This document shows, in pieces, positions 5,386 to 62,695 of a DNA stretch of 64,000 nucleotides. Below the pieces are notes generated by a model. It had not been told where the DNA came from. It searched no databases and saw nothing but the letters and a program-made list of their open reading frames with translations. Position 1 is the stretch's first letter. Each line of letters starts with the position of its first letter. The DNA is taken from positions 48,362,001-48,426,000 of the forward strand of contig NC_087251.1 of NCBI RefSeq assembly GCF_037042905.1. Reading direction: 5' to 3'. A program made the translations under genes and the position numbers. Source of the stretch: Lytechinus pictus (Eukaryota).

Positions 5386-6624
5386 TATCTTGATACGTGT
5401 TGATTTCCTTTTTAAGCAATGATGCATTTTTTCTCTTTTGAACAATCAAGTAGAATAAAGAAATACATGTATACACTGCACGTAATTTAGAAGACATGCA
5501 TTATACATTTACCCTATTGTGTTAGAAAGAAATCACGGTGGGCGTGCGTTGGGTGTGGGTGAAAATGAGTGTGCACGTGCGTTGGAGATTTAAAAAAAAA
5601 AGATGGGAAGAAAGAGAGACGGGGTGCGAACGTTTTTAGACTGGAGTTTCCAACAGACAAGAAATTCATTTAAGCATCTGTCCTTTTGAGCTTTTTCTAA
5701 ATACGCATAATTTCAAATAAAGATGTTCTTGACAAGAGAGCTTACTCGAAGCTTACCATACATATCAACAAGAAATGTAGGCAATCTGCATTAAGTACAA
5801 AGCCTGGTGCCTCTGATGTTCGACGTTCGGAGCCGCCCGTTCATGGGGAACACTGAGAAATATATTATTTTAAAGAAAAGTATTACTATGAATATGATAC
5901 TCACGTGGGTCTTTGAAAAAAAAAAAATGAAAGCAACAGTTTACCCATTTGAGACTGAATGCTTTTCCTATAAATCATGTTTTCCATAGACTCCAACCGA
6001 CCAGCCCAAATATATGAGGGCTCAGTCTCCAAAAAGATTAAAACAAGGTGTGTCGAAAATAGATTCACACTGTGTTAAGGATTTTCAGAAATTCAGGATT
6101 GTGAGGTCATATGCAAGTAGCTCCCCATATATCAAATGAATTCCATGAAACGCCATTTCATTAAATAGACAATGGAAACAATTTGGCATATAAATATCAT
6201 ATAGGCCTATTATCAGACACATTATTTATTTTACGATTCCATGACATTATGTGGCAGCTGCTCGCACGTGACGTCACAAAATAAACTTTGCAAAATCCTT
6301 ACACCTGGGGGGCGTTTCATGAAAGGACTTGTCGGACGTTTTATCCGACAAGTCCCATTTTATCCGACAGTTACCATAGTAACAGTACCTCTCAGCCAAT
6401 CAACATCAGAGAAAGATGTCAGATCTGACAACTTGTCGGATGAAAATGTTGATGAAACACTCCCCAGGTTCTTTAGTGGATTTCCAACAAACTGGTTTTC
6501 ATTATTGTTGTTTTGCTGGGTGAGCGAAAGTTTGTGTTGGAAACGAAATATAATGGTAAGATTCAAATTATTATTTTACTGCAAATGAAAGGTGAATTTC
6601 CAGATTCGGATTGGCGAGTCCGTC

Positions 6625-6954
6625 ATTCTTTGTTATTCAAATTTAGTTCGGCTTTGAGCCAGTTTTCGCGGTGACACGTCAGGCACCATATTTTGAAGGT
6701 GTTGGATTGGGACGCCTGTCAGTGTATGCTGCTTAGTGTGAAGGATTACCGAGGTTTTTTTACCTGACTGCTAAGAAAGCACGAATGCCTGTGAGCAAGC
6801 AACCAGCGGACCAACGGCTTAAGGTCCTCTCCGAGGGACCTGGTAATGAGGATAAATGCCTTACCAAAGGGCACTAGCGCACCACTTGGGAATCGAACCC
6901 GGGTCACCGGAATCCGAAACCCCCGCTCTACCGACTGAGCTATCGCGCCTCCCC
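6625..6954 (-). mobile_element. tRNA-derived SINE
   Basis: A box TAGCTCAGTCGG and B box GGTTCGATTCC, followed by a non-tRNA body; 3' boundary approximate. Confidence 0.7.
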
Positions 6955-8059
6955 TTATTGAGCCATCAACTTCACAAATTTAGTTAACAAGTCCCACTGG
7001 AAAAGAGTAAGTGTCAAAGACTACGATTTTACCTTTCCATATTAATAATGTTAAAGTATACTGAAATGAGGTTTATCATATGGATCTGCCCGTTCTAGCA
7101 ACAAAAGTATGGCGTGTCTGACTATTTCGGGTTGGTTTCGGGTAGTGAGTTATGGTATCGGTTATTCGAAAATAATTCTTATTCCATGAAGTTGAAATAA
7201 ATCCTAATAGATTTAATGTTGTATGAACAGCCGGATTAGATGAAAATACAGTGCTATTGTTCGTCTGACAAAAAAAATAATACTGGCAGGTCAATAAAAA
7301 AAGTTGCACTTAATTTAAGAAAGTATTCTGCTTGTTAGTTTTATACGTCATTATGAACAAATCTAATTTTGGCAGTTAGCTGGTTAATTTGCAGAATTGT
7401 TTTGTATTATTATTTATTTATCGCTATTGCAGATTGATATGATTGTATGGCACAAAGTGTCTGGTTATTATTCAAGAAGATTACACAAATTAAAGCAAAT
7501 TTATGATCAGGCATACGAAAAAGTAAAAAAAAAATTTTGTGGTGACTAAACCAAACAAATACTCTTTTATTATTATTTTACTTAAACGATAATCACACTC
7601 AAAACTTTTATTGGAAAAAAGTATTGATTAGTATTTAGTAGAAGAAAATATGTGCTATGATTTAGCGTATAAAATTCCAGAAAACTACATTCCAAACTTT
7701 TTTTTGTTTAAATGAGTAAACCTACTTAAATGAAAACGACAACAAAATGACAAGAAAGACTACATGATTACATGCCAAGTAAACTAAACTGTTAATCGTT
7801 CATGCATGCATAACTGAACAATATAAATACACACTACTAAATACATAAACACATAAATGTTGTTCATTGATTACTTCATGTCGATACTGCGAGATGTAGC
7901 TGTTTCACTTGTCAATTATCCAACCGCGTTTTGCAAATTTTCTGCTTCTCTTAAAATCTACTTTGTGTCAGGGTGAACCTCCTTCTAATTAAGCAAACAA
8001 CTGCTTACAAATTCATATTTCCCTTATAGAATGACTTTCATGCAATAACCGTTTTTGTC

Positions 8060-8985
8060 CATCATCATAATCATCATCATCATCATCACAAACATGTAAT
8101 ACAAAAATTACCATCATCCTCATTGTCGTCACCACCATCATCAGCACCATCACCTCATATATATCATAATCATGAAAATTATCATCATTTGACAATTATC
8201 GTCATCATCAACTCCATCACCTCATCATCATCATAATAATGAAAATTATCATATGATTATAACGATCATCGTCATCATAATCATCAACACCACCACTTCC
8301 TCCTTCTCATCATGAAAATTATTATGTTGACAATGATAACTGTCATTGTCATCTTCATCATCACCATCATCGTCATCATCAGCATCATCATCACCATCTT
8401 CATCATAATCACCATCTTCATCATCATCATCATCATCTTCTTCATCATCATCATCATCATCTTCATCATCATCATCATCACTATCTTCATCATCATCATA
8501 TTCGTCATCATCATCATCATCTTCATGATCATCATGATCATCACCATCTTCATCATCATCACCACCACCACCATCATCACCACCATCAACACTAGTCTGC
8601 AATCACAGACCCATATTTGACACTTAGAACCAATAACAGGTCTAGAGTTAAGACTATGCCAAAGGCTCTGTGTCAAATAGAGCCAGCCACAGTACCTAGC
8701 GAATCTAGTCTCACTACTTCAGTCTCTGCATTATGCACTATGCGAAGTGCAAAAACCAAGGGTCTTTGCCTGCAGACTACATCAACACCATCATCACACC
8801 ATATTTTCTACCATCACCACCACCACGATCATAATCATCACCACAACCACTACCAACACCACCACCATCTTCACTATCTTTAATTTTTACCACCACAACC
8901 ATCATCCTCATCATCATGACCATGACTACTACTATCACCACCATCACCACAATCACCAATAACACTAACATCATTAACATCTTAC
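8060..8985. repeat. Degenerate (CAT/CAC)n trinucleotide tract interrupted by a MITE
   Basis: Direct reading; generates poly-D/M/I/H pseudo-ORFs in several frames. Confidence 0.9.
8593..8779. mobile_element. Small MITE, TAGTCTGC...GCAGACTA, 9-bp TSD
   Basis: TSD CATCAACAC on both sides. Confidence 0.7.
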
Positions 8986-9948
8986 TCCTAATCATTGAAA
9001 ACTTTCTCCTGTATATAGCAGCAAATTAAAAAATACTCAAAGTAAATGAATATTCAAGTATACACATCTATGCCTTTACCTCCAATGTATCACCATCTAT
9101 CTTTGAAAGGAACAGAAACCATGCAATGTTTATGTTTTCAAATATTTTAATTAAGTACACAAAAACAGCTGTTACAAATATTGCACCATTCAATAACACT
9201 CATTTTCAATAAATAACTGCAATATTACAAAAAACCCAAAGAGGGCATACAAAATCACAATTTTCGATTTCACATTTGCACCTTAGCACTGATTATAACT
9301 ATGTAAGTAGATACGCAAGATGTCAATTTTTTTAAATGTGATTTCTCAAAATATGAGAAGAGATAGTCGTCGACATCGAATCGTCTTGAGAGACGATAAT
9401 GTATATAGCACTAGGCAAGGCTCTATACACTAGCTTTTTTTCTTGGTGGCCTGCAATGCAAATTTGGTGGCCCTAAAATATAACATATTCCAATTTATGA
9501 AAACTTTGGTAGCCCAACCGGGTCAAGCCCTGCACTAGGTATCACACTTTCTAGAGTCACTAAAATTAAGATAATCCGGCTTATATCAATTGTTAGACTT
9601 TCAAAGAAGTAAAGAAAATATACAAGAGTTACATCATTTACATCAGAATTGTAAATGAACTAAAATCCAATATTTTTTTTGTATAGGTTGTAATGGGATG
9701 TGTGTATGTGTGTGTGTGTGTGTGGGTGTGTGTGTGTGGGGGGGGGGGAATAAGGGTGTGACATGTTGCCCTGCCTGCACAGATAATGCTGGCTATTTAG
9801 GAGCCATAAGACAAACTGCTTTACATCCTCTCCAAAGGAAAATTCTAATACTCCACCAGTCACTGGCACATTGTATTCCTTTCAATCCAAGAGGGCTGGC
9901 TCATGGGGTCATTGTTGTATCAAATGAGCTATCACATCTAGTTATATA

Positions 9949-10683
9949 TAAACCGCTCAAAAAAGTTTGGAAATCTGAGTTTGGCCATTAATTTCTTCCA
10001 ACTCCCAATTTTACACAATGCATATTTGATATCATTCAAAAGATCATTTAATTCTCTTTAAAATGATACCATGCTTGTTATGATCATGCCATCACGAAAA
10101 GAGCAGGATTCAAAAGTGTTGGATGAGGTCTGAATTGAAAAGCTGCAAAACGAGCAGAAATAGTCATGAAGGGTCAATACAGAACATGATTCTTTGTCTG
10201 TGTCAATAGAGATGAAAGTCCATTCAAATCAAGCCACTGCTTCTTCATTTTTTATGTTTTGTTGTGGTTTATGGAGTGATGGTTCTGTGAGATAACATGG
10301 TTCGAGTCGTGGATTGAAATACCCATGCATGTTTGTTTGTTTGTTATGTGTTTGCTTGTGCAGAGATGTGTTTGATTCCATGTTAATGTTGATGTTAAGG
10401 TGCATGAAAACAATTAAAAAAACCGCTGAGAAACTCACTCATCACCACGGAAAAAAGAACAGCGACTTTCAATGTGTCATTTTGCAACTTGTGAATTTTG
10501 ACCTTGCCCTTCATTTCAAGGCACTGCATTTCCATGTGAACCATAATCATATCATGTAGGGTATCATTTTAAAGATAATTAAATGATCTATTCATTGGTA
10601 TTTACTACATACTGATATTTACTAAAACTGAGGAGGGATTATCAATCAAAATCAGATTTCCAAACTTTTTTTTGAGGAATTTA
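9949..10683. mobile_element. TA-flanked MITE
   Basis: Inverted termini CTCAAAAAAGTTTGGAAATCTGA / TCAGATTTCCAAACTTTTTTTGAG inside a (TA)n run; ends approximate. Confidence 0.6.
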
Positions 10684-13600
10684 TATATATGTTCACCATT
10701 ATGTAGCAATTTGTATGTAGTAGTTTTGGATGTAGCAATCTTTATTGCCAAATGAATCAAAGTTTTGACATCAAATGATTTTGCAACTGGACTAAACTAG
10801 CTCTTTTTATCTAGTTCACATAGGAATGTGGAAACATGTTGCTTAAACCAAATGCATTCTGAAAATATACATAAAATCAGTGCCTATGAGGTGAGCAAAA
10901 TAATTAAACACATCAGTATTTGCTATGAAATAAACTACAGTAGATATACACAACCAATGTTGCATAAAGTCAAATAAAATTGAGATGTTAATGAGTAAAC
11001 ATTTTTAATAAAGTTAAAAGTGTCAAAATGTGTGCTTAACAGTACAATGTATATTGATTGCATTTACTGATTAAATTGATTTATCCATTGAAAACTCATC
11101 CAAAAACATCCAAAAACAGTGTTTTCAGTTAGCCTGTGAACAATCATAGAAATGAAACATACTTTAAAAATAATTTCCTGTTTGAGAGGAATACAGGATT
11201 TGTAAGTTTGTATACATACTTTCATTTCACTACATGTTAATATCATCATTTACAATGGGTCTATTTGAAAAAAAAGACCATTGCAACATATAATAAATAC
11301 ATATGGAAAGTATTTGTTGACTGATTCCCTTCGATGTCATATATTTCAGTGCTGTATAATGAATATTCTTACTATTCTTTCAGTTTGGCAATAAAACAGA
11401 TTTATAGTGCCCTGATTTCAAAAATACAATTTACATGTAACTCTTTCAAGTATTCAAAACAATAAAATTCAAAAATTGACACAAAAGCAGAAATCAGACA
11501 AGATTCCAAAATTTCAAAGAATTACAGTACAATCAAAATACATTACACATAAAAAAGATGATTTGCTTGAAAATAAAGATATATCATCATAATTGCACAT
11601 AGTATACCATGATTACCATTGTAGTAGAATTGCAAATAGTATTGACTATATAGAGGACCAAAGTGATGATGTCATGGTCTTACGGGACTGTCACACCTAG
11701 ATGTGTTTCACAATTAGTTGAGCGTGAACTAGAGGGTTTTGCAAGAAATAAATTGCAATCAATTTAGAAGCTCAGATTCAAATTGACAATTAATAGGTCA
11801 ATTTCAACCAAAGCAGATCAGTTTACATTCCTTGATGCAAGGAGACCATCAATCAATTGCAAAGCTCAGATGCAAATTTACAAGTGATAGATTACTTCCA
11901 ACTAAAGCAAATCAATTTAAATTTGTTGATGTAAGGAGCAGACCTTCAATCAGTTGCAAATTTGCAATGAAATGCATGACTTTCAATCGATTTTAGGACC
12001 TGAAATTGACTTGAAATCAATTGCAAGTTCCTAGCAACACCCTATTAGAGTCATGCTTATTAAAACACCAATGTGCACATGGTATCCTAAGTGTAACATT
12101 TATTGAGGACTACACAGTAGGTTGCATCTTCTGCGCATGATCTGACTAAATGCGGTGATGCCTCGTACCATGCAAAACTGAAATTTTATGTGCCATTTTT
12201 AGTCAAACTTAAAAATATTTGTGAAACACCACACAGGGTGCCGTTTCATAAAAACCTATTATACTAACAAATGCAGAATTTTCATAGCAAGTTTCCAATC
12301 AGCCAATCAAATTGCATAATTTCAGTAGCTTTTAACTGTTATTGTTAATTTATTATTATGACAACTTTTAGAAAACAGGCCCCGGGTTTGACAGCCCCCA
12401 AGCAAGAAATCCCTGTGCAAGGCATTAATCAGCAAGTTGGAATTAGGAACTTGCATTATTAGCACCTCCTGTCATCACAGACATTTGAGACTGAAAACAT
12501 TCAGAAGCAGTTGCCATGGCAATGAATGACTGCAATATCACACTTCAGTACTTTAAGTCAGTTTCAAACGGAATATGAAAAGCATATAACAACCTACATG
12601 CCTATATGCACAGAACACTTTAAGTTATATTCACTCGTTGCACAAGAAAAAAATCTTACTTAAAACGAAACCATTAATGTGTGCACACATATTTTTTTAA
12701 TGCCAGCATTAAACGATCCAAACAGAGCTGTCTAAAACCAAAATCAACACAGCCTAATGATAATCAATACCTAATAATGCGTGGCCAGCTAGCTTTCATC
12801 TTGTACGCATGTAAGATGAAAAGATGAAAACTATTTCAAAACGTAGATAATTAAGGACTCTCAGGCAATAACAAAGAAAAAAGATCATTCTGAATAGAAA
12901 ATCAAGGATTTTACGTCAAGATAAATAGCTCAGAGCAGTGTATACAAAAACATCGAAATATCACATATGAATACTGGAAATTATAATTTCTAACTACTGC
13001 ATAGTTTGGTGTTACTCTAGTCGTACAATCATGAAAAACAACACACTTTATAGAACACTTCCCACATCAGCAAAATCAGAGGAAAAAATTCCAGTCAACA
13101 CTAATCATTTCTGATTAAAACACCAATTGTTAATCAATGACATAACAATACTACTTGAAACAAGGTACCAGCAACATTTAAACTTGCAACAGAATAACTT
13201 GGCTTTGCTACTAAAGGCATTAAATATTGCATACTGATTTGCAATCGCTTCCACATAGCAGAATATAAAAAGCTTCATCCCTATATTCATCTCACCCTAA
13301 GAATAAGAGAGAGAGAGAGAGAGAGAGGGGGGGGATATGAGTTGTTCACAGACATTAGCATTGCACAAACTGAGTCAATTACATTGTAAAGTAGTGAATC
13401 AATACACAAGAAATGAAAAAGACATTGAATGAGATCAAATAATTTAATATATGTTCATGAGTCACACCAATGAAACCAACTCTAAATCGACTGATACTAT
13501 ATTATTGGAAATAACATAGCTTTAATCGGTCTGGGGATCTTAGGATAGGGATCAGACATTTTGTGTTAGGCAATGGGTTAGCAGGATTATACCCTTGCCA

Positions 13601-13988
13601 CCAAATGAAAATGAAAATCCATATTTCATTGTTCAAAATAGAAATCTGAAATTGAAATACTCCATGATCGTGGGCCCTGCAACACCTCCTATCCATCCAC
13701 AAGAATCAGATTTATTTTCCCAATCTCGCTGTTCACCACGGCCATAGTGGATAAACATCTCTGTGCAAACCAGAGCAATCACTATCAGTCAAAAATTTAC
13801 CCACATTGTGCTGCTCTTAACCCAGGTGTGGTAAATAGGTACCCAGCCGGATTAATTCCTTGAATGCACCGAGTGCTGAAAATGAAAGCTCGAGCTAAAG
13901 CCGGGTAAGAATAATAGTGCGCCTTGGAATATACATGTATCATATCTTGATAGATGCCTATTATCATAATCAATTTTGATGATGATCA

Positions 13989-14176
13989 TCAGTCGTTGAC
14001 CTGGTGGTCATTCCAGGTAACCGGCTGGCAGCGGATGTTGTAGTACGGGGAGCAGATCTGCTGGTATAGTGGCACACGATGAAAGATACCGATGTTGGCA
14101 AAGACCAGCTCAGAGCTGTAGTACGTGAAGAAGGGGCCCTCGCAACAAGAGCACTGTCGGACATTCCGCAGCATTT
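13989..14176 (-). CDS. LRR gene coding exon 9 (terminal)
   Basis: TTGTAG acceptor; MLRNVRQCSCCEGPFFTYYSSELVFANIGIFHRVPLYQQICSPYYNIRCQPVTWNDHQVND*. Confidence 0.85.
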
Positions 14177-17100
14177 CTACAATAAGAAAGAATCATATTC
14201 ACCCAATCAAGTGAATCCGCCTCAGTAGAGGACCATGGAAATCTTAGGAAAAATTAAACTTAAAGAGAAGTAAATAACATAAATTTGCAGTTTCTGGTCA
14301 AGCGGAGTTTACTGTAATGTTGTAAAATATTTCTATAATGAAAAGGAAGTGATATTCACTCGATCAAGTACTATCCGTACATTATCACAGGCTTAGTAGT
14401 TAAAAGATCCCAGACCCAACAAAAACAGAAATTTAGGCTATCACTTAATTAAGCTTCACTGGCACAACACAATAACATATGTAATGAGGCATGATACATT
14501 CTACCCAACCCTCTTACTACATAGCTTCTACCCACACTATAAGAACACAGGGGGATGTTTCACAAAGCAAAAAGTCAATACGTTTTACTGACTAAATTGT
14601 GTTTAGCCAATCACATGGAAGAATTTAAGAGGTTTATTGTCAGTGAAAATCACTGATTGCTTGAAATGCTCCCCAGATGTACACCTGGGCCCTGTCTTAC
14701 GAAGAGTTACGATCGATCCAATCAATTGTAACTTTATGGAAATCCATCAGTGTCATAATTTTTTTCTACAGGAAATTTGCAAAATGTCCTTTTTAATCAA
14801 AGGAGAACACCCCAAATTGTCAAGAATTCATTGAATTTATGGATATGGATTCATATCTAGAATTTTTTTGGAACAAATATGCATTTCATATGTTGACTTT
14901 GCTGGCTTTCCATAGTTGCGATTGATTGGATCAATCGTAACTCTTTGTACAGTGGGGCCCTGGGCCCTGTCTTACAAAGAGTTACGATTGATCCAATCAA
15001 TTGTAACTTTATGGAAATCCATCAGTGTCATAATTTTGTCTACAGGAAATTTGCACGTCTTTTGTAAACAAAGAGAAACACAGCAAATTTTCAAGAAAAC
15101 ATTGAATGCATGCATATACATCATAGAAAATAATATGAACAATTTTTTTGGAACAAACATGCATAATAGATGTAGACATTGCTGGCCGTCCATAGTTGTG
15201 ATTGATCAGATCAATCGTAACTCTTCGCAAGACTGGGCCCAGTGCATATAATTGAATCTTTCACTGGTTGCTAATATCAGTTTTAACTTTTACAAGTTTT
15301 ACCACAGTCAACTTTCAAATTCAACGGGATTATGGCACATTCTTAACTTCAACAGACAAATTCAATTCACATGAATGAGATACATATAAAGATAATAGAA
15401 CGGCCTTCTAACTAATTTTTCAAACTTTAATTCAATACCTGTATGTGTACAACTTCTACACAAGTGAACGATAAATTCAAAGGGCATCTTTATTCTTCAC
15501 ATTGATATCAAATGAAAACTTGAAGTTCTCTAAAACCAAAGATAGAAGCAGAGAAGCATTTCATGAAGAGATTTTGACGGTGATTTTCACTGGCTAGCCA
15601 ATCGGATGCAAGGATTTGCAGAAGCTTATACATCTCTTGGCGAAAATCACTGACAAAAACTCTTAATGAAATATGCCCCTCCCCCTGGTTTGGATGATGC
15701 GAAACATTGCTTATTTCACAATTTCTTTGCCGGCTTACCACATAGATTTGCGGGTAGATCTCCCTCGTTCCAGTTGAGCCCATTGCTTGATATACATCGA
15801 GCTGCTAGCTCCTGTAAGGGTGGTACACTGGTCTCAGGACGGAATGTCATCTTATTTCGAGAAGGCTGGTCCCACTCACCTATAAGCTTGTCATGATTTA
15901 CTTTATAAAAGAAAAGAAAGGTACATGTATTAGACAATCATTTTAGTCATCTTCTTTATTATCATTCATTATTTTATTCATTAGAGCGGTGTTGGCTCAG
16001 TCGGTAACGCGTCTACCCGTCGAACCAAAGATCGTGGTTCGAGTCCACCCCGGGCGGATGACTGAAGCCAGTGCGTTGTGTGTAAACGTCTCTCCCATGT
16101 TTCATAGATGCAGGCTATGTTACAATGGAAAACACACCGTCCCTCGGATAGGACGTTAAATGGAGGCCCCGTGTAGAGGAGAGTCATTACCTTCGCACGT
16201 TAAAAACCCACTGCACTATTCGTTTAAGAGTAGGGGGAAACCCCGGTGTAGTGGTCCACCTGCATTCCCCCCAATCAGTTATATCGGGAGGAGAGACCTG
16301 AGGGTCATAGTGATTAAGTTCGCTTTTCGCCTCCCAGGCACAGGTGACGCCAAACAAATAATAATAATAATAATAATGAAGGCAAACTGATTCCAATGTC
16401 CTATTTGCATCACATTTCAAGGATGCTGCTATGATTGCTATCTTAATCTCCCAAATATATTTTCTCAAGATTTTAACTAATTTTTATGAGAAAGATTAAT
16501 TTTTTCCATTTCTATGTTTACTATTTATTGAAGTTTCACAACTTAAGTCTCAACCACAGGCACTTGAACCAAATGATCAGATAAAGAATGGGGGGGGGGG
16601 GGGGTTTAAACATTGTGTGTTAATGACGAATATTCTACCACCAATTAGTTTGTCGGGGGGGGGGGAGTTGTTTCACTAAGATTTAAGTGTGGATCGGTGT
16701 CGCACTATTATTTTAGTTGCGTGCGGTATATAACGCAGCATCGCATTGGTCAGATCATGCACATGGGATGCGTATTCATCAATCAGACCACGCATTAAAT
16801 TACATGGGCCCGTCGGTGTTTAAGCATGACTCTATTATTGTCTTACTTAACTCTTCCTGAAACACCCCCCCCCCCCTGGCCACAACTGGTTCCAATTGGT
16901 ATCTCTCAAAACTTTATTATTTCAATAAGTGATTGGTAATAGTTGAAGACATGTCTTACCACTGAATGTATAAAGTTGAAGGTATGAGAGAGATGCAGGG
17001 AAGTACTCCAGAGGGTTGTTCCTGACATGCAGTTCCTTGAGAAGGTGAAGACGTCCTATCTGATCTGGTAAGGATGTCAACCTAAAGAAGATGAAATGAT

Positions 17101-26436: not shown

Positions 26437-26660
26437 GAGGACATGGTGGCTCAGTGGTAGAGCGCCTGCCCCATGAACAGGAGGTCGTGGGTTCGATCCC
26501 TGGCCAAGTTATACCAAAGACTAAAAAAAAGGGATTTTCTGCCTTCTTGTCAGGCGCTTGATGTATGAGAATGGAAAAGGGTAATGTTATGCACCCCTGG
26601 CCTGCTGGAAGTTCACAGCTTACAGCTGAGAGTGCCTGGGTAAACTTTATTATTATAATC
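26437..26660 (+). mobile_element. tRNA-derived SINE
   Basis: A box TGGCTCAGTGG, B box GGTTCGATCCC, (TTA)n tail. Confidence 0.7.
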
Positions 26661-50700: not shown

Positions 50701-51726
50701 GTTATTTTCTATCATTCAATTCTTTACAGGCTGCTATCCAAAGGGGATGTGATCAGCTTCAGCACAAGAGCATTCCCAGAATTCACCCAAGAAGCTGGAG
50801 AAGGGGGAGGTCAACGTCTGCCCAACATTAACTTCCTGGTCAACAAGATAGTTTCACCAGTGGAAAGAGCTTCATCCTACCTTGTCAATGTCTTGCACAC
50901 AACAGTCTATCAGGTTTGTATGAAAGTAATGGGTTGGGGGTATTCATAAAAATATTTGAAATGTTTCAAATACACTGTATAAGCTACTGCAATATTTATA
51001 AGGAAGGCTGAAATGGGTTTTTCTATCACCTTCTGATAGCCACATTAATTTGAAGCTGAAAGATGTTATACAGATTTTGATTATCATACACTCTGTTAAT
51101 GTTCACTTCGGTACAAAGTATAATATTTGTCAAAATTTCATTTTCAATGTAACCATTTTGCATGCTCAAAGAAAAAAAAAGAAAAAAAAGGCAGGCTCGT
51201 TCTGTTTACTTTACATGTACCATATTGAAAAACACAATAACCTCCTATAATATCACGTTTTTGAAATCAATATGTCCATGAAATTGATTTCATATAGTGT
51301 ATAATTTACTTTCAAAATGGTATTTTCTCAAATAATAGGAATGCCTTCTATGAATGTTAGAGGATTCAATAGCTGAGATGACCCAATGCATATGATTCTC
51401 AGTAGTGTATGCACTTGTAAACTTTAAGAGGGTTACTACAACATGTAATGAAGACTTGGTATACTATGACCATGTTAAAACAATGTGCTGTAATCAATAT
51501 TGAAAATTGATCATAAGTTCTGTTTGAATGATATGCTGCCGCCTTTCATTTATGATCCATTGTACTGGGATTCCCTTATCATCATAATACTTGAAATTCA
51601 ACACAAAAGAAAAGATAAGACCTACTAATTACAGAGCTGCCGAGTAGTACGATTATTCCGTATTTAGTACGTTTTTGCAACCAAAATACGGGAGTACGTT
51701 TTTTCTTTAAAAAAATATGTTTTTGG

Positions 51727-51761
<35 letters not shown>

Positions 51762-54700
51762 CTATATGTCTCTATTTCATAAAACGTACACAAATATGGT
51801 TATTAGATCAATGTAATTTCAGGTAACTTGTTTTTTTTTTCAATCATTTTGTAAAAACCAGGGTGAGATATACACAAGTTTCAATGTTTTTTTTTTTTCA
51901 TCTGCAAGAGCAGTGCACATTTTAGCTTGCATGCAGCTTGAGCGCCGTGATGGGCGAGTGCGCCAAGCATTTTATTATGAAATACACTTTTTTGGGGGAA
52001 AATACAAAATATTTATCTCACACTGTAAAAATATCGATTTTTTTGGTCAAAATACTGATTTGGGGGGATAAGAATACTGAAAATGCAAAATACAACTTGG
52101 CAGCTCTGTAATTATACAATAATAAAGCATTCTCTTTCTCATGTGAATAGGAAGGACCAAAGCCAAGCTTTATTCCAGTGACATCAGACGTCTATCTTAG
52201 CAACAAGTTAGATCCACTGTGGGCATCACCGGTCCCCACAGGGATCAGTAAATATCCATTTCAATTGGAGCAACTCATTCTTCCGTTTCTTTTTGGCAGG
52301 TTTGTAATTAAACAAAATATTCTCAATTATCATTTTAATAGTTTGATGTATTTTGTAGAATGCTTCCAAAATCATTGAATGTCTTTTAAATAATGACTTT
52401 GAATTTTTGAGGGATATCATGAACTCCTCACCCCAGCCGCCCCCTTAATAAATGAAAGGTAAGGACAAAACTGATCATCCCTTTCTATTTTTTTAAAGAT
52501 TTTTCTTGAAAGTTTTCCCCAAATCCACTCCGAAGTATGCAACAAATTATGCAGTTTCAAGAAGAAAAAAAATGCCTTAATTTCCACCTGAAAAATATTA
52601 GCTTATATATCCTAAAGGGAAATCAATCCATTGAAAATATATTGGTTTCATGATTGAGCGTGAAATGCAAGGGGGATGATGAAGTGTATATGTCATAATG
52701 AAACATATATCACCAACATTTTACTCTCATTTTAAGTTATTCTGTAAAAGTTTGTTTACATTATATCATTGAACATCAAATTGGTTTTTTTCTGAATAAA
52801 ACAGGACATTTCTAAATCCTTTAGAGGTTGCTTCTGTGAACATCCTATTCCTTAACATTTTAGGATGTCACTTGAAAAATTGGACCAAGGGAGCATGTCA
52901 TGAAGAGTATTGATCAGTAATTTTCACAGATTAAAGGGGAATCCAGCCTTGGCCATAAAATGTGTTGGGGAGGAGAAAATTAGATTAAACAGAGTGGTAA
53001 AAGTTTGAAAGAAATCGGGCAAGCAATAAGAAAGTTATAGCTGCTATAAAATTGAGATCATGATACAATGTAGATTTCAAATTGGCAACTGGGTAAGTAA
53101 ATTATGACAAGGGGCAAGGACAACTTTCCCATAGGCCATGTACTTAATTATTAGGGATTTGTGGTTTTCTCCTAAGTACCCATTCCCCTGGGGCAGTAAT
53201 CTAAATGTAACCCAGATAGTATATTGTTTTATGTCCTCATGAAAGAAAAATATAACTTGAAATAAAACTTTTGGGAAAATGACATATTAGCCATTATATG
53301 TATTGGAGTACATGGAAGAGTAGTCCTTGTCTTACATCACTATGACACCTCATATTCGGCCAATTTGAAGGCTCCATTGGTATAGTGATTACCAATATTT
53401 ACAACTTTTAAAAAAATCATAACTTTCTTATTGTTTGTCCAATATTGTTCGAACTTTCACCTATCAACTTATCTGATTTTTCTTTTTTCTTATAAAAGCA
53501 AGTTCTTATTTGGGTTGGATTCCCCTTTAATTTGCTCTTAGCCAATCAGATGCAAGGATTACCTAGAGCTTATAACCTCACTGACAAACATCTCCATTGC
53601 AGGGTCCAGTGTGAAAGACTACCCTCATCCATTCTCTTGACCGGTCCTGCTGGGAGTGGTAAAGCTACCGCTGTGAAAGCCGTTTGCCGTCAGCTCAACA
53701 TGCACTGCATCAATGTCAACTGCTATGATCTTCTCGCTGATACCTCTGCAGCTACTGAGGCTAAAGTCAGGAATACATTCTTTAAAGGTAGCATGAAAAA
53801 CTGGTTAATTATTTCAGTTTTAATTCAGTTCAAATAAACATAGTTCAGATTGTAAATTTCCCCTAAATACTAAATGGCTTATTAAACTTCAGCTCCACGA
53901 TCTCCTTGCTGACATCTCCGCAGCTACCAGGCTAAAGTCAGGAATACATTCTTCAAAGGTAGCATGAAAAATTGGTTAATTATTTCAGTTTTAATTCAGT
54001 TCAAATAAACGTAGTTCAGATTGTAAATTTCCCCTAAATACAAAATGGCTTAACTTCAGCTCCACGATCTCCTTGCTGACACCTCCGCAGCTACCAGGCT
54101 AAAGTCAGGAATACAGTCTTCAAAGGGAGCATTCAAAATTGGTCAATTATTTCAGCCTGAATGCAATTTAAATGAACATATCACCAAATTTAACCTTGCC
54201 CCTAAATCAAAATGGCTCAACTTGTCTTTTTTTGCCTAAATTAATTAAATTGTTCTTGCACTAGTTGACAAACTTCTGGGAGGACAAATTAAAAATATAT
54301 CCATTTGATCATACATTTGTCAGCCCATGTAAGGCAAAATTGCTATTTTTTTAAATTCACAAGATTGTTTGTCAGAATTGATATTGGCATACTCCTTTCC
54401 TGATGAATATTCAAGGGTTGTGCTTGTTTATATTCTCACTATCTTGGCTCATTCTTGAACTATCAGATTTTTAATAGGAAAATGAATGAACACAAGTTTG
54501 GGGGGAAATTGAAGTCAGGCCAGATCTTTAAAAGATAAGTTGAAAAAGAAACAGACCAAACAGTTAAAAACATTATCAAATTATGTTTTATAAACATATG
54601 ATGTAATTTTGATTTCATGGTTTAATGATTACATGTTGAAATAACAATAAATATAGTATTTACTTGTCTGCTGTGCCATGAACTGTTAAAAATGAATAGT

Positions 54701-57700
54701 GATAGCTTTAAATTTTGATGTGTGCTCTCTGGTGTGGCTTCAGATATCAATTTCATTCTTATAATAGAAAGTGAGTGTGGAAACACTTTTACCAAGTCAC
54801 TTTGCTCAATTTTTTTTTGTTAAAATACTTTGCCATTTTGATTTTTTAGGGAACTTAATTTTTGTGTTGTATTGAGGTTTATTTGCAAACTGATGAAAAG
54901 GCTTATGTCTTGATACAAATGGCAGCTACAGTGTTGATGCATTTTTTTATATATATATATATAAGTTTTTTAGGTAGAGATATACTTTGTAATCAATGTG
55001 CTCCAACACTAAACAAGAACATTACTGATTCAATATCTTAAAAAGAAAAGAATTTGAAGTTTATAGTCTATATATTCAATCTTTGATTCGTCTGATAATC
55101 TATCAGGTTTAGGTCACAAATGATGGACAGCAGAAATTTCTTTGAAGGAATTATCCTACTGTCCTAAGACTAAACGGGCTTATTGAATACATCCTGTTCA
55201 TTGTGATACCTTACTTTCAAATAATTCAAAATCAATATAGTGTAATAGCACAGCCACCTGTAATTGCCTCAGCTTAAGTTCTGAAGTATTCACATTGTTC
55301 AAGACTATATTTATACCCACAATGCAATATTTGGTCATGTGGTCACATAGTCTCAGAATATACCTATTACTTTATAAATAATTCATTGCCACACTTTGTC
55401 ATTGATTCTACAAATTAATTGCAATGGTACAAATGTAAATTATTGGTAATCAAAGTGTGAGAAGTACTTGTATTGAGGGTCAAAAAGTTAGTTAGGTCTA
55501 GATAATAAGATTATACAGATATTACCTACTTAGAGTTTGAATATAACATTTCTTCTCCCCGACGGAGTTATATTTTTCCCAAGGGATTATATTTTGCCCA
55601 AAGCGCACAGCGCTGAGGGAAAATATTCTCCCGAGGGAAAAATATAGGTTCGGAGGGGAGTTGAAATGTTATTTATTTAAACGATAGACCAGGCAATATC
55701 TGTTATATTATAGTCTATGTGGATTCGCCATCAGAGATTGCATTCATCATCTGGCTTCAACCTGAAATTCTTGCTACAGCTCTGATCCATCTACGTCATA
55801 ATGGAATTTAAAAATAAAATACATCAAGCGCGTTCTTCATGCAATCGACGCGTTAACACTAGCGTTTACACCCTGATTACGCAACTTGTGAGCAACTAGT
55901 GACGTCACCTTAGTGAATATAATGACGCAATTGACAATACAACGCAGTTATATTCACTGAGGTGACGTCAAAACCTACAATATAACAAATGTGATCCTCG
56001 CAGCTATGGTCACGTGTTGGCGTATTGACCTATCACTGATTCGAATCTACATAACCTATGTAATATAAATCAATAAAGCATTTCAACATTCCTACTAAAA
56101 CGCCTTATCTGAACTTTATTGATGCATAACAGAAGTACAGGGAACATTCATAAAAGGAGTTGGTGCTTCTCAGCCAAATCAAAATGAAGGAAATTAATGG
56201 GTCACATAGAACTATTTATACCCACATTGAGGCCATTATTTTCTTCTTTTTTATTCTCAGCTGGTATGAGTGTCCCCTGCATCATTCTACTTAGGAACAT
56301 ACATGCTATAGGCAGAGACCGAGAAGGGTCCGGAGATGGTATGTATGACAATAACAATAAAAAAAATAACAAAAACAATGATAATGATAGTAATATGCAA
56401 CATTTAAATTTGTTAGTACAATGTTTCTATTAAAGAGGAAGTTCACCCTGATGATAATTTTGTTTTAATACAAGCAGAAAATTTGAGAAAAATATTTGTG
56501 AAGGTTTGATGAAAATCTATCAAAGAACAAGAGAGATATGAATTTGATTTTTATTCCATTTGTGATGTCATATACTTGTAGCTCCCCCATATATCATGCA
56601 AATTTAATTCAATAAATTCCAATTTCATTGGAACATGATGAAGCGAAATCCCGGGGTGGGGGGGGGGGGAAGTACTTGAATTATAACATGATACCTATGT
56701 CCCACGCCAAAGTAAAAAAACATGGGGGCTCTGGAACTAAAACTTGGTCTTAAAACGGGGTTCTCCGAAACGGCTCTTGGATCTACGATTGCTAAAAATG
56801 CAATGCTCCGGAACTGACTACATAAAAACGGGGGTCCCCGGAACTCATTAGATCGTAGGCGTAATTGGTAGCGGCTGTGGGATAAAACATGCGCGTCTTG
56901 CTAGATTCATATAGACTAGCACTAGCTATTTTCTGGCGCGGGGAGCTTCAGGGATACGGCGCTGTGGCTCTGCGCTGATCGAGCTCGCCGCTCCGACCGG
57001 CTGAGTGGTTCATAATTGGCGTGCATTGGAACGAGAAATCACAAATTTGAGGGTCTCCGTAATGGGGAAATATAGCAATTTATATGGATTTCTGAATTGG
57101 TGATGCTCTGGAGTGGAAAATTGGCTGAAGGCTGAAAATGGGGGTCTCAATGGCGGCACATACGTACAGGTGTATCATGCATTTATACTTAGATCCCCCA
57201 GGAGCAAAATATATTCTTTTAGAAAAGGATATGAAATTATATGTCTCATGATGGCATATCTTCCTCACAATCAATTTTTTTAGAATTGCATTTTTGGAGT
57301 TCATATAATGCAACATATTGAGGAGCTGCTCGTATGTGACATTACAAAATCAGAACTTTGAACATTCGTAAATCTATAGTTCTTTGACTGATTTTCATTA
57401 AACCTTCAACATTTTATACATTATTTTTTAATCTATAAAATTACTTGTATTATTTTGTAGATGCCTAATTTGAATTTTTTGTGTCTTTTAAATCAAATTG
57501 TAAACTGTGACTTTTCAGAACTGAATGAATTATAGATTTAAAAAAAATGAATAGGTAATTCCTGGCAAAGCAACTTTTGTCACAGAAGTAAGAACCAGTT
57601 TTTAAAATCTCATTCATGAATAACATCTTGAGTATTGATTGTAGTCAAGATATAGATTTGAAATATTATCAATTTTCTTCACAATTACATGTACATTATG

Positions 57701-60700
57701 TTCACAGCCTTATCTTCAAAGAGTTGCGATAGATCTGAAATTACGAAGTTAAGGACGTTCCACAGTTATGTTTGTGCGCATTATGATCTGCGCATAGTTT
57801 ACACTCTGCGCGCTGACGTCACAATGGATGAACAAGTGATTAATTAGATGCGCGTATGTGCTGATTTTTCTCATCTTCTGCACTTTAACTGCAGATCCGA
57901 TGCGTTATTTCATGAAGCTAAAAAATGGAATTATTCCATGGACCATTCAAAAAAAGATTCTCTACAATTTCAAAATACTTTACTCTGCAGTGCTGCCAAG
58001 AATCACGAATATTACCCCGAGTTTGAATAAATGGTAGAGTGGTTTTGATTTTTTCTTCACATAGATACAAAGCATTCGGCGCATTTTTGGTGTTTTAAAA
58101 AGCACATTTGCTCTAATAAAATACTGATAGTTTAAAAACAAGCACATGAACCCCTATTTTTTAATGTTTGTTCCTCTTAGGTATACCTTCCTCTACAACT
58201 CTACAAATTTTGGTGAAAAGGACATGGATTTTGAATAAAGTGCAGCATTTATTGTACTTTTGTAGTTTGTTACTGAAATTTCACATTTTTTAGATTGGGA
58301 TTTTGTTATCTTTTACGCCATTTTTAAGAATTGACAGTGCTGTTAAACTTAAAATTGCAAACAAATAGCACTATAAATATATTCTCCATTCTAACGATAC
58401 AATTATTAACTCTCTTGCGAAATTTGATGACTTGTTCATGTATTTTGACTGAGTAATAGAGGTTTAAACTCATTGTAGTAATCTTGGGCGGTCTAAAAAT
58501 GCCAAATTCTTTTGAATGCGCAATTCTTAAGAACATCAATTTGGGTGAACTTTGAAGTTCTATAGCAAAAAATCAAGCACATGGACCTATGTTAATTTTT
58601 GCATATTTCGAATATTAAGGTTCTAAAGTATCTGTGTGCAAAGTTTGGTGAAAATGACATGGATTTCACTTTAACTGTGGAACGTTCTTAAATGATTTTA
58701 AAAGCCCTGTCACATCAGTCCCTTCAAGCCTTGGTACCCGCAGGTCGCCAGCAGTTGGTCCGCATTGACGGTATCTCGCACATATCTCACACGCAGTTGC
58801 CCGCAGAAGCGCACAGAAGTATGATTTGCACGCAGTAAAGTTTGGAGCATGCTCTAATTTGAATCTTTCACAATTTTTTAGTAAGATCTGGTAGGAATGA
58901 TGTTCTCGATTCAAGTCTCTTGCATGTGATTCATTGGGTTTATTCGTCAAATGCCAATTCGTCCAATTGTCAACTTGTCTACTATCATCTGGTCTACCAT
59001 CGGTTTGCCCACTCACCACATTGTCTACTGTCATTTAGTCTAATGCCATTCCGTCTAATAATCAGTTGGTCCAATCGCCATTTAGTCCATATACCATTTG
59101 GTCTAATTGAACTAAGGGTTAAATTGTGCAAAATGAATGAAAATGACATGGATATTAGACCAACTGGTTATGGGACGAAATGGTCATAGGTGACCATTAG
59201 ACGAAATGTTGATGGACAGAATGGCATTAGACTAAATGAAAGTAGACCATGTGGTGAGTGGACGAGTTGGCAGTAGACAATTTGGCAATTTACCTCCATA
59301 TGTACATGTACTGTATGTTACCTTTCTTTGTTTCAGACCTGAGAGTAGCAGCATACCTGAAAGAGACTATTAACAATCTCCATTCAACATATCCTGATTG
59401 GCCAATGATAGTCGTGGCAACAGCACCTTCGGCAAAGCGTGTGACAGCGGACATCCAGAGCTGCTTCCTACACCATTTGGGAATGGAGGTATTTTTCATT
59501 TAATTTTTGTTTTATTTTCATACTAATAGCTTCAATATGAAAAGTGTTTAATGTGTTGGTGAATGTATTAATCGTCAACATCAGCCTAGATTTATCAGCT
59601 CATATTGTTTAAATAGTGCACAGTCCACCATGAACTATTCGGTTTCTAGAAATCAAATGCAACTTGGTCTTTATTTAGTAAAACATGCCATTTAGGGATT
59701 TCAGCTTGATTTTGAGTGCTGTATTTAAATGCAACTCTTCTGCGATGGGGCCCTAGTCTGCTGGGCAAACCCTTCACTCAAGTAAAGGGTCTGAATTGCA
59801 GCCTACTCATGCCTTGTGTACTGAAGAACAGCAAGTTTTTATGTGCTAGTCTTTGCATAGAGGCGCACTTGTTGATCAAAGTTCCAATCAGGGTCTGTGC
59901 CTGCAGACTAAAGGCCCCTGATGTTATAATGATAGTGATAATAATAAATATGATAATAATATGGTGCCAAATTTAATCTGTAAAGTGCTCAAGGTGCCTT
60001 TCAAGAATAGTTAAAGGAAGTTAAGAGGAATTGAACAGAAATCTTGTACAAATCACCTTTCATATTCGTCTTTATCGCTCCATCACAAGTGCAGCACTGA
60101 ATACAGCTATAACAATCATCTTGCACATAACATGATGCAATTTTAACCCTTTGAACCCGTTAGGCCGGAATACCGGCCCACCAGTAAACGCACATATACC
60201 CGATAGGCCGGAATACCGGCCTACAGCCATGTGACTTCAAAACATGGATTCTAAATGTCAGGTGATCTTTTCAAAATGACGTCATCTTTCTAGTACGTGT
60301 AGGAATATTTAGTCGATAATTTCAGTCAAGGTTGGTGATGATTTCGGAAGGATTTAGCATAAAAAATGGCCCAAATATGCCACTTTTTTATGGTTGCTCG
60401 TGTCGTGTGTGCGGTAACACACGGTGTAATATGCGGCGAGTCACGTGCTTACTATGGGGAAACAATTGGTATATCTGACTTTGGTGAAAACAGTGATTTT
60501 GAGCCCAAAACAGACACTAAAGTTGATATTTCTGTTTGTAGACTAGGTCTACGAGAAGGTAAATAACGTCAGCCGGCTCGGTCCGGGTACTAGCGGGGGG
60601 AAGATGCCGTTGGATCTCGAATCATGGGAGTTTGTGAATGTGGTCAATATGTGCAAATAATTCAGGGTATAGGTCACCACCGCCCCTAATAATTCAGGGT

Positions 60701-61074
60701 TCAAAGGGTTAACCAATCACAATGCTTATTTCACATTCACAATTACATACTATTAGTAAATGTATATGATATGTATTTTCTTCCACTTATAACTTTTGTT
60801 TGCACTCTGCCTTGCTTTTTCTGTTTCATTGATCATCTTATGTCTCTTTCACTACCTCTTTCTTTCCCTTCTCTCCACCCTTATTTTACTCTCTTACTTT
60901 TCTCAAATTCTTCCAGTTCAGTAATATCTCCTCCAATATATGTATTTTCTTTCTTCCGATGTATTTTCCAAGGTTCCCAATGAGCAGGAGAGGTGTGACA
61001 TATTGCAAGCCCTTTGTGAGAAGGTGTCTTTGGCAGCTGATGTTGAGATACCCCACATTGCTAAAAGAACAGCC
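46154..61074 (+). CDS. PEX6: Peroxisomal AAA+ ATPase PEX6, first 8 coding exons (3'-partial, 883 codons in window)
   Basis: join(46154-47776, 49563-49738, 50730-50913, 52151-52299, 53603-53787, 56261-56338, 59337-59488, 60973-61074) with consistent phases. PEX6-like segments: PPIATAVHLSLIKSPHY, RLLSKGDV, LLTGPAGSGKAT, IGRDREGSGDDLRV, ERCDILQAL...IAKRTA. The D1 Walker motifs are degenerate (Walker B region IILLRN), as expected for PEX6 D1. Confidence 0.92.
47986..49416 (+). mobile_element. HINE family A copy in PEX6 intron 1, ~8 repeats
   Basis: Same termini and monomer as 666-1950; lacks the unique spacer. Confidence 0.75.
49563..49738 (+). CDS. PEX6: PEX6 exon 2 (GC donor)
   Basis: TTTAG acceptor; LATDELEEY...KPPIATAVHLSLIKSPHYPMTSQFDDAIKKYFSVT; donor AG|GCAAGT. 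Confidence 0.85.
50092..50688. mobile_element. TTAA MITE, same family
   Basis: Same TIRs and body; TTAA on both sides. Confidence 0.8.
50730..50913 (+). CDS. PEX6: PEX6 exon 3
   Basis: TTTACAG acceptor; LLSKGDVISFS...YLVNVLHTTVYQ; GTTTGT donor. Confidence 0.9.
51632..52108. mobile_element. MITE CAGAGCTGCC...GGCAGCTCTG
   Basis: Short TIRs flanked by TAATTA on both sides. Confidence 0.65.
52151..52299 (+). CDS. PEX6: PEX6 exon 4
   Basis: AATAG acceptor; EGPKPSFIPV...PLWASPVPTGISKYPFQLEQLILPFLFG; GTTTGT donor. Confidence 0.85.
52935..53526. mobile_element. TTAA-flanked MITE (same family as 30922-31516)
   Basis: Same TIRs and body. Confidence 0.85.
53603..53787 (+). CDS. PEX6: PEX6 exon 5 (D1 Walker A)
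   Basis: TTGCAG acceptor; SILLTGPAGSGKATAVKAVCRQLNMH...NTFFK; GTAGCA donor. Confidence 0.92.
53727..54220 (+). repeat. Three tandem ~170-bp units covering the PEX6 exon 5 3' end and donor
   Basis: GCTAAAGTCAGGAATAC recurs at ~53760, ~53931 and ~54097. Confidence 0.9.
56261..56338 (+). CDS. PEX6: PEX6 exon 6
   Basis: TTCTCAG acceptor; GMSVPCIILLRNIHAIGRDREGSGD; GTATGT donor. Confidence 0.9.
56650..57202. mobile_element. CCCGGG-terminated DNA element nested in a decayed MITE
   Basis: 8-bp TSD AGCGAAAT/AGCAAAAT; repeated GGGTCTCCGGAAC-like motifs; host MITE starts TTAAAGAGGAAGTTCACCCTG at ~56430. Confidence 0.6.
57753..58687. mobile_element. TTAA-flanked element (Kolobok-like)
   Basis: TTAA|GGACGTTCCACAGTTA...TAACTGTGGAACGTTC|TTAA. 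Confidence 0.75.
59337..59488 (+). CDS. PEX6: PEX6 exon 7
   Basis: TTTCAG acceptor; LRVAAYL...WPMIVVATA...IQSCFLHHLGME; GTATTT donor. Confidence 0.9.
60147..60708. mobile_element. piggyBac-like MITE
   Basis: TTAA|CCCTTTGAACCC...GGGTTCAAAGGG|TTAA. Confidence 0.8.
60973..61074 (+). CDS. PEX6: PEX6 exon 8
   Basis: TTCCAAG acceptor; VPNEQERCDILQALCEKVSLAADVEIPHIAKRTA; GTAAGT donor. Confidence 0.9.
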
Positions 61075-61093
61075 GTAAGTAATCATGATTTAA

Positions 61094-61891
61094 CCCCTAT
61101 TGAAACTTAAACGGGGGGGGGGGGGTCAATTTGTCCCCCCTCACCAAATTTCATCGCTATTCCGCTGCACAATTTTTTTTTACCGCGCCGCTCGCTGACT
61201 TTTTACTTTCAAGTCTTGCGCATATTTTGAGACCAAATTTGCGACGCCCGGGTACGCGGTTTCGAAATTACGCAATATTTGTAAGTGCATGTCAGTCCCA
61301 AAATTGCTCAAAAACGTGATTCCATGTACAAAGTCAATGCAAATTGTGTTTATCAACCAAAAATCATAAATGTATGATTATGTTTACTTTTGTTGGTTTA
61401 GATGGATTTATTTTATGTCATTTATGATCGCTTACAAAATAAAACCTTCGTTTTTTATTGTTTTTTATGAACAAAGTTCATAAAAAACAATAAAAAACGA
61501 AGGTTTGAAAAAAAACAAAGAAATACATAAGAATATAAAAAAAACAATGAAACACATTATTTTTGGGCAATCATTTTTTTCGATGTTTGATAGAAATGTA
61601 AAAATTGACATGTTCACCAAAAAATAGCATTCTACTAGCTACATTAAGTGAGTTAAAGGCAAAAACATATACAAAAAAACAAATTAAGAGCAAATTTCAT
61701 ACGCTTATTTGCATAATTAATTGATAAGAAAATATAAGCAATTAATTTTTTTTTTAATTTTACGATACAGTCTTGTAGATTTCATCTGGCTCCACGCGCG
61801 TGCAAATTTTTGAGGCGATCGTTCGATCAACGGCTGAGATCTTAGGGGGGCTCAGTATATTCTGGTCTGAAATAGCCCAGTTAAGATAGGG
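61094..61891. mobile_element. piggyBac-like MITE
   Basis: TTAA|CCCCTAT...ATAGGG|TTAA. Confidence 0.7.
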
Positions 61892-62695
61892 TTAATATCT
61901 TGGGCCCGTTTCATAAAACCTGTTTTAATAACAATTTTACAATAACAGTTTAAAGCTACTAAGATGATTCAGTTTGATTGGCTGACAGTGAACTTGTAAT
62001 TTACATGTAAATTGTACATAAGATATTCAATTCCTTTGAAACGGGACACAGAGTACCTTATTTGGTTTGCAGGAGGCAGCAGCATCTATAGGTTCACAAC
62101 CTCCGTGCGCATGCAGGAAACTCGGGATTCATACTGCAGTGGATGGTGGCAGTTCGGCCGTTGCTAACCATTTGCTGAGCAATTAAGCATGTGCAGATCG
62201 ATATTGTTCATCTTGGTTTAAGATGCTCAGCTGAGCAAGGAGATTCACGCACCTACACATGCTCGAAGCAGCATTCATTCACCAGGCAAAATACTATGTT
62301 ATTTTGGGGACTACTTTTCACGACCTACTACATGTGTACCTAAATCTGCAACATTGGATGGGTTTTAACATTGCAGTGAATGAGGACTTCAAGGTCTCTA
62401 TTTCATTTTCCAGGCCTCTCTTGAGCATTTTAGGGGCAAAATCGCCCCCAGCTCACCTGTAATTTTTTCCCTGGACCCCATTCTGTGCCGACGAAAGGAA
62501 TTTGTAAGAACCTTTGCGTTAATTAGTTGCTAATGCTTGAATTAATGTTTGTTTACTAAGCCTAATTTGTTTACCTTGACAGTAAATCACAGCTCATCAT
62601 TTCGCGTCCACAGTATTTTTCAATTCTATATTGTTTTTTTTTCAAGCTTTATGTTTATTCATTCAACTGTATGTTGAAAAACTTCATTATATCAG

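Follow-up and report, generated by a model that had tools for sequence, protein, structure and literature searches.

A stereotyped six-letter insertion at TA sites in Lytechinus pictus DNA as a likely excision footprint of Tc1/mariner-type transposons

The palindromic octamer TACATGTA is strongly over-represented in a 64-kb window of the genome of the sea urchin Lytechinus pictus (GCF_037042905.1, contig NC_087251.1, positions 48,362,001 to 48,426,000 of the forward strand; coordinates below count from the first letter of this window). From the sequence evidence presented here we consider it likely that these octamers were left in the germline by the excision of cut-and-paste transposons of the IS630-Tc1-mariner type, TA-targeting elements with CA…TG ends, and are footprints of end joining with 2+2 nucleotides retained. 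An original prediction, made from the sequence alone, had proposed Tc1/mariner footprints; Tc1-like target flanks, footprints stacked on one another and a mobile element with matching ends support it. The type of footprint is already known, and it is the scale that is unusual.

Abundance and insertional character of the octamer

The window holds 33 TACATGTA octamers, or 31 sites once two tandem pairs are merged. Base composition predicts 2.2 copies and Markov models of orders 1-4 predict 1.6-4.1. The order-5 expectation of 10.7 is inflated by the motif's own contribution, and taking the motif out of the background gives 1.3-2.1. Relative to an expectation of about two, the excess is ~15-fold (Poisson tail ~1e-23 for an expectation of 2.9, and still 4e-8 for the inflated one of 10.7), and TACATGTA ranks first in frequency among the palindromic 8-mers of the window. 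The original prediction had counted about 30 copies by eye against 2-3 expected, and the Markov comparison, made within the window for orders 1-5, bears out this enrichment. Seven of its eight example coordinates are exact; the remaining one, 17298, really begins at 17297.

Its figure of one scar per 2 kb is right as an average, but the distribution is patchy. The densest 14 kb contains 19 of the 31 sites, against 11.3 for random TA sites (p=0.0002), and the counts by segment are 1 (1-8 kb), 6 (8-23 kb), 18 (23-37 kb), 2 (37-45.7 kb) and 4 (45.7-64 kb), leaving 13 sites over the 50 kb outside 23-37 kb. This dense patch is probably intronic DNA of a minus-strand transcript starting near 37.2 kb, as read by eye. 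Between 0.6 and 1.7% of TA sites are marked by TACATGTA, with a tendency toward CpG-poor DNA (median local CpG ratio 0.42 vs 0.56).

Wherever a close sister copy exists, sequence comparison identifies the six letters as a derived insertion at TA. Aligning all 33 octamers to the rest of the window gave spanning sisters for 24028 only, and copies lacking the six letters are available at five places in all: 24028, 33082, 23562, 29856 and 48428, the last with one substitution. At each of these (four exact, one substituted) a single TA has become TA duplicated on both sides of the insert. The scar at 24028 lies in a miniature inverted-repeat transposable element (MITE). Nine alignments span it: four have a clean six-letter gap, one a four-letter gap, one a nine-letter gap and one scattered gaps, while two matches to a less closely related MITE family (72-75%) lack such a gap. 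The insertions that the original prediction had read in this MITE, in a TTAA target site (which it placed at 23561) and in a short interspersed element (SINE)-like repeat compared with its copy at 17580 all stand, the last on one sister copy. Its satellite example at 48428 is indeed a monomer lengthened by six letters, but one letter away from TACATGTA. Around 29856, 113 letters of the window correspond to 107 in a multi-copy contig from run X11, the 6 gap letters being counted over the piece as a whole without a located gap position. Across all within-window repeat alignments (16,260 bases covered), 6-bp gaps occur only at 24028 and 48428.

Target flanks, stacked footprints and a matching element

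The Tc1 target consensus is CAYATATRTG and that of Sleeping Beauty RCAYATATRTGY (PMC2577343, Table 1). We collapsed each scar to TA and matched the 62 half-sites to CAYA-TA-TRTG, which gave 106 matches where random TA gives 84.7 (p=0.002). Restricted to the 25 sites adjoining no other unit, the score is 87 vs 68 (p=0.002), and with 305 other TA-N4-TA words as controls the bias has p=0.0003. It is also symmetric, with A at -3 in 14 (left) and 15 (right) of the 31 sites. By sequence, the flanks fit the palindromic Tc1 target preference.

Chains joining CATG to further TA-bounded units (CATG, TG, CAG, CTG) number five, whereas 33 scars placed at random TA sites give 1.1 (p=0.004). Two of these chains are simple doubles, which slippage could also produce; both had been noted in the original prediction, at 26068 and 32454, and both were found.

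The same prediction had placed a TA-flanked CAGTG…CACTG element at 29549-31790, and the sequence there has TA on both sides, these ends and degenerate inverted repeats of ~215 bp. The central letters of TACATGTA match the ends of this element, whose own target agrees with CAYA-TA-TRTG at 7 of 8 places. Family contigs skip its two nested inserts, leaving the ~1 kb core. One X1 contig joins 29543 to 31791, and the element is therefore absent from one X1 allele. The summed depth over the element, 2-7 x 10^5 vs 30-50 for single-copy contigs, suggests roughly ten thousand related copies, depth not being equal to true copy number. An element family with ends matching the TACATGTA centre is or was mobile. 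By its ends, this element may be a source of the TACATGTA scars, and other CA-ended families may have contributed too. The CAGTG…CACTG end pattern has no match in metagenome or viral contigs. Inside the element, the nested insert at 29920-30581 has ends CCCCGGGGGGG…CCCCCCGGG and an apparent 7-8-bp target duplication, and holds scar 30333.

After TACATGTA, the next most raised TA-N4-TA word is TAGGCCTA (8 vs 0.4, 20-fold), and its flanks carry the same Tc1-like bias (33 vs 21.8, p=0.0015). On this sequence evidence TAGGCCTA is probably a product of the same excision process acting on elements with GG…CC ends. Within-window alignments gave a spanning sister copy for none of the eight sites, and the literature that we searched, subscription journals and supplements aside, holds no report of TAGGCCTA as a footprint. 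Five of the eight fall at 38434-40876, and 38-41 kb is free of TACATGTA. Local CpG ratio medians are 0.76 for TAGGCCTA and 0.42 for TACATGTA (Mann-Whitney p=0.012; Fisher p=0.015); because circular-shift tests of this difference give p=0.06-0.19, a sorting of the two classes by chromatin is only conjectural. Near-variants of TAGGCCTA stand at 38834 and 38935. Two further words were considered as scars and rejected: TAGACTA/TAGTCTA (11 vs 3.7) has no flank bias and two of its copies are internal to one repeat, and TACCGGTA at 17644 is a SINE-internal variant.

Beyond the window we analysed at least 116 metagenome loci, picked by a triple TACATGTA repeat, and 120 viral loci, picked by a double; metagenome sites were counted as independent when more than 50 bases away from the selected run. 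Among the matches listed, the metagenome loci contain 129 further independent TACATGTA vs 17.4 expected, and the flank bias recurs at 104 isolated sites (367 vs 314, p=0.0006); the viral loci contain 13 vs 18.5. In the same listed matches, TACCGGTA (20 vs 2.1), TAGATCTA (20 vs 3.1), TAGGCCTA (16 vs 2.3) and TACTAGTA (12 vs 3.2) are up 4-10-fold, TATATATA is up 4-fold, TATGCATA, TAATATTA, TATTAATA, TAAGCTTA and TAGCGCTA are up ~2-fold, and the other 5 of 15 words are at or near expectation. One contig (L017:4024) has TAGGCCTA and TACATGTA fused on a shared TA, reading TAGGCCTA-CATGTA. None of the metagenome matches listed, from these at least 116 loci, resembles the window. Some of the scar-bearing metagenome contigs also contain small inverted-repeat elements that are flanked by TA and end in GGC or CA (L045:1212-1299, L057:7029-7116, L063:7-501, L044:310-493 and L030:2143-2445).

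Table 1. Positions of scars, elements and genes in the 64-kb window
Feature	Position	Strand	Remarks
TACATGTA sites, first part	5464, 11432, 13932, 15922, 17297, 18828, 21246, 23562, 24028, 24800, 25757	.	exact octamers
TACATGTA sites, second part	25867, 26068+26074, 26730, 26745, 27536, 29095, 29856, 30333, 32360, 32454+32460, 32646	.	exact octamers
TACATGTA sites, third part	33082, 34176, 35651, 37256, 44288, 51212, 57686, 59303, 62002	.	exact octamers
Span of all TACATGTA octamers	5464..62009	.	33 octamers, 31 sites
Dense patch	23001..37000	.	18 of 31 sites; 1057 TA dinucleotides, 1.7% of TA sites; CpG observed/expected 0.50
Scar within TTAA-flanked MITE	24028..24035	.	exactly six letters missing in 4 sister arms
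Scar splitting TTAA target duplication of the same MITE	23562..23569	.	7 of 8 family ends keep TTAA; here TTACATGTAA
Scar in head of SINE-like repeat	33082..33089	.	absent from sister at 17580
Decayed scar TTCATGTA	48428..48435	.	one 154-bp satellite monomer six letters longer than sisters
Scar inside CAGTG element	29856..29863	.	multi-copy family contig 6 letters shorter over surrounding 113-bp piece
Compound scar TA-TG-TA-CAG-TA-CATG-TA	27527..27543	.
Compound scar TA-TG-TA-CATG-TA-CTG-TA	59299..59315	.
Doubled scar	26068..26081	.
Doubled scar	32454..32467	.	present in X6 allele as well
TAGGCCTA sites	3228, 6202, 38434, 38985, 40334, 40531, 40869, 49937	.	span 3228..49944
Non-autonomous TA|CAGTG…CACTG|TA element	29549..31790	.	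core ~1 kb plus nested inserts ~29920-30581 and ~30916-31514
Leucine-rich-repeat gene	15719..20725	-	exons within frames 20516-20725, 19826-20155, 18352-18564, 16925-17131, probably 15719-15937
AAA-ATPase gene, PEX6-like	46088..61107	+	Pfam AAA E=4e-10; later exons assigned by eye

Age, mechanism and competing explanations

One-mismatch neighbours of TACATGTA number 61 vs 41-46 expected, implying a decay of ~6.5% per letter (95% range 1-13%); contigs of organism A diverge from the window by 5.6% on average. We compared contigs of four runs with 23200-36100 at 85% likeness; among X7-X20 all runs but X11 were left aside for their small word shares. High-copy repeats dominated the result, and the allele comparison rests on length arithmetic over 32 pieces. 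Five octamers at four sites (24800, 27536, 32360 and 32454/32460) are common to the window and the X6 allele: three pieces have too few missing letters to be without the scar, the other 10 scar-holding organism-A pieces being undecidable. An X1 piece containing 27536 has exactly 6 letters fewer, again counted over the piece without a located gap. In this four-run comparison missing letters are not clearly commoner in scar-holding than in scar-free pieces, and no indel falls at a scar among 12 of the 235 indel rows. Many of the TACATGTA scars appear, from sequence, to be old. As old scars shared between alleles, they point to a long build-up, and their density is therefore a sum rather than a present rate. 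Of the very frequent insertion-excision cycling that the original prediction had proposed, the excision process is retained, and its tempo is better described as long accumulation with local hot spots.

That elements of the superfamily insert at TA, duplicate it and leave a footprint once the broken ends are joined is established (PMC2874221), and two-nucleotide staggered cleavage has been shown for ISY100 (PMC2170065). In the mechanism that we propose, an element enters TA and duplicates it, the step established for the superfamily. End joining with both overhangs retained would then produce TA-CA-TG-TA, a gain of six letters; that this occurred in the germline, and that it is the dominant outcome here, we infer from the product. 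A TA of the scar lying in a favourable context could be used again, giving rise to doubled and compound scars, which slippage may extend. The scars, small and presumably nearly neutral, would pile up over long times as full elements are lost, and local hopping or open chromatin could arrange them in patches.

Of the closest known systems, C. elegans Tc1 shares the TA target, the CA…TG ends, the CAYATATRTG consensus, end-joining repair and the TACATGTA footprint itself, documented there but called rare (PMC3520976); the footprints are those of Eide and Anderson 1988 (cited in PMC3520976 and in PMC13148408). Tc1 scars are typically +4 (78%; PMC13148408) and somatic, the germline restoring the element by homologous repair, whereas in the window the +6 form is dominant, inherited and present at 0.6-1.7% of TA sites. 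Sleeping Beauty and ZB (PMC7913693, PMC2874221, PMC2577343) likewise duplicate TA, leave element letters between the TAs and prefer the same target motif, but their footprints contain zero to three element letters (PMC7913693), unlike the scars here. A study of rice species also used comparative alignments and treated excision as a genome-shaping mutational force; mariner insertions outnumber excisions there by ~2:1 and 8 of 94 excisions are clean (PMC4423477). Rice excisions are mostly messy and fewer than insertions, while in the window one stereotyped scar outnumbers extant elements ~30:1. Finally, Phytophthora motif-1/AM-20 is the identical octamer, very abundant in non-coding DNA and with a tandem-like example in a table (PMC3520976, PMC11134190); in the available text it is read as a transcription-factor site, and a footprint origin is raised and dismissed on abundance alone, with no indel comparison.

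Several observations weigh against excision footprints. The main unexplained point is the ratio of ~30 scars to one extant element of this kind in the window, for which long accumulation together with element loss is the simplest account. No transposase was found in the window (no Pfam transposase match in 23 frames, of which 19 lie inside the element at 29549-31790 or overlap it), and a TA|GG…CC|TA element was looked for there and not found. No single site has been seen empty, filled and scarred: the X1 joint has 28 unread letters, where an empty site predicts 3 and a simple scar 9. For 27 of the 31 exact sites there is no informative sister copy, and 10 of the 31 are tandem duplications or one mismatch away from being so, where 5.2 would be expected. 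The +4 forms TACATA/TATGTA are hardly raised (66 vs 56) and have no flank bias (p=0.14), so that a C. elegans-type spectrum, with +4 dominant, is not what the window holds, +6 standing at 33 vs 2. The +5 forms TACAGTA/TACTGTA, the canonical 7-mer footprint of Sleeping Beauty, are weakly raised (14 vs 9) without flank bias (p=0.24), and a Sleeping Beauty-type spectrum dominated by them is likewise absent. The metagenome loci, for their part, are motif-selected, partly redundant and in many cases within TA/TG microsatellites.

The alternative that survives best, though we regard it as improbable, is an element with CATG ends whose four-nucleotide overhangs pair perfectly and always yield TACATGTA, as GGCC ends would yield TAGGCCTA. 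Such pairing would account for the dominance of one form and for only palindromic centres being raised, and the 6-bp footprint of Minos also counts in its favour. However, the window yielded no element ending in CATG or GGCC, the element that is present begins CAGTG and its four-nucleotide forms TACAGTTA/TAACTGTA count 0, and the compound scars mix CA, TG, CAG and CTG units.

Three further explanations each seem to us very unlikely. Replication slippage could duplicate a hexamer and seed a (TACATG)n microsatellite: doubled forms are present, two sites are perfect and eight one-mismatch tandem duplications, and the long metagenome arrays are often embedded in TA/TG microsatellites whose edge is fixed, TG on the left and CA on the right. 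At 21 of the 31 sites, however, at least two changes are needed to obtain a tandem duplication, the letters inserted at 33082 and 48428 are not in the sister's context, and slippage gives no reason for convergence on one word.

The octamer might instead be a selected transcription-factor site of Irx or Myb type, since it abounds as a motif in Phytophthora promoters, where it has been called the site that Irx prefers (PMC3520976), and PsMyb37 binds it in Phytophthora (PMC11134190). In the window, copy 37256 lies at a likely promoter and five octamers are common to a diverged allele. Yet the copies are derived single-copy insertions in repeats (MITEs, a SINE and a satellite) and in a target duplication, selection is unable to supply a 6-bp insertion repeatedly, and the one-mismatch shell indicates decay.

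Equally unlikely is a retroelement with a (CATGTA)n tail that makes very short insertions, or another repair process that leaves templated patches; TA-rich cuts would then receive a constant insert, and excisions would not have to be in large excess. Left and right flanks share the bias, no sister-backed scar marks a retroelement 3' end, and other TA-XY-X'Y'-TA words are raised as well, all of which speak against this. That TACATGTA arose in methylated gene bodies from another footprint (TACGCGTA, TACACGTA or TACGTGTA) through CpG decay is barely conceivable: TACATGTA does tend to CpG-poor DNA, and TACACGTA/TACGTGTA stand at 3 vs 0.7, but sibling products should be equally common, and TACACATA/TATGTGTA count 5, TATGCATA 1 and TACGCGTA 0, which refutes this origin.

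Excisions usually leave no record. If TACATGTA is an excision footprint, past transposition could be counted, dated and mapped genome-wide from a stereotyped scar that recurs every 1-4 kb, and germline end joining, not homologous restoration, would follow excision in this lineage. A footprint origin would also account for an over-represented word that motif finders could mistake for a binding site. Since its six letters keep the reading frame and contain no stop in any of the frames, an insert could lengthen a protein by two residues; the exons checked contain no such case. Among the papers listed in the literature searched, which lacked subscription journals and supplements, none reports TACATGTA as a footprint signature across the genome of any animal, sea urchins included.

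A wider generalization is possible, and we offer it tentatively, with more doubt than confidence: in many marine animals and protists, repair after germline excision of TA-targeting transposons would keep both two-nucleotide overhangs, giving a family of palindromes, one per element end (TA-CATG-TA, TA-GGCC-TA, TA-CCGG-TA, TA-GATC-TA, TA-CTAG-TA), at up to 1-2% of TA sites, with a sorting by chromatin that puts TACATGTA in CpG-poor gene bodies and TAGGCCTA in CpG-rich intergenic DNA. Were this so, insertions that have since vanished could be mapped and dated from the palindromes, factor sites would be supplied ready-made in great number, and the Phytophthora AM-20 motif would be a co-opted scar.

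Genes and other repeats in the window

The window is AT-rich (36% GC), with many MITEs, SINE-like repeats and satellites. The exons of the leucine-rich-repeat gene contain no TACATGTA scar. The PEX6-like gene, in which DPBB_PEX6 scores E=0.002, below the cut-off, has three scars in introns and one just beyond, and none in the exons checked. Over ~3.1 kb of roughly delimited coding DNA there are 0 TACATGTA sites vs 1.5 expected, a comparison with no power to reveal exon depletion. Two exon-like minus-strand frames, 25220-25696 and 23271-23573, lie between the leucine-rich-repeat exons and the likely promoter at 37.2 kb; they have no Pfam match and may belong to a small separate gene. At 53575-54236 a piece of an AAA exon is repeated ~3x directly downstream with 167-171-bp spacing, a tandem duplication of the exon end.

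A near-perfect palindromic element at 36060-36686 has 203-bp arms (98%) and a 21-bp spacer, lies inside longer outer arms and could fold into a long hairpin; one frame was tested and has no Pfam match. A 154-bp tandem satellite occurs at 736-1956, 22087-23100 and 48056-49410, one of the three being inverted. In two of these copies the likeness extends into further flank, inverted (1775-1956 with 22087-22268), a pattern suggestive of a mobile unit that carries the 154-bp array. A second satellite, at 41851-43701 and 62793-63859, is built of 163/192-bp units in a 517-bp higher-order repeat, and copies in its first array are up to 100% identical. A long degenerate (CAT/CAC)n microsatellite occupies 8051-8990.

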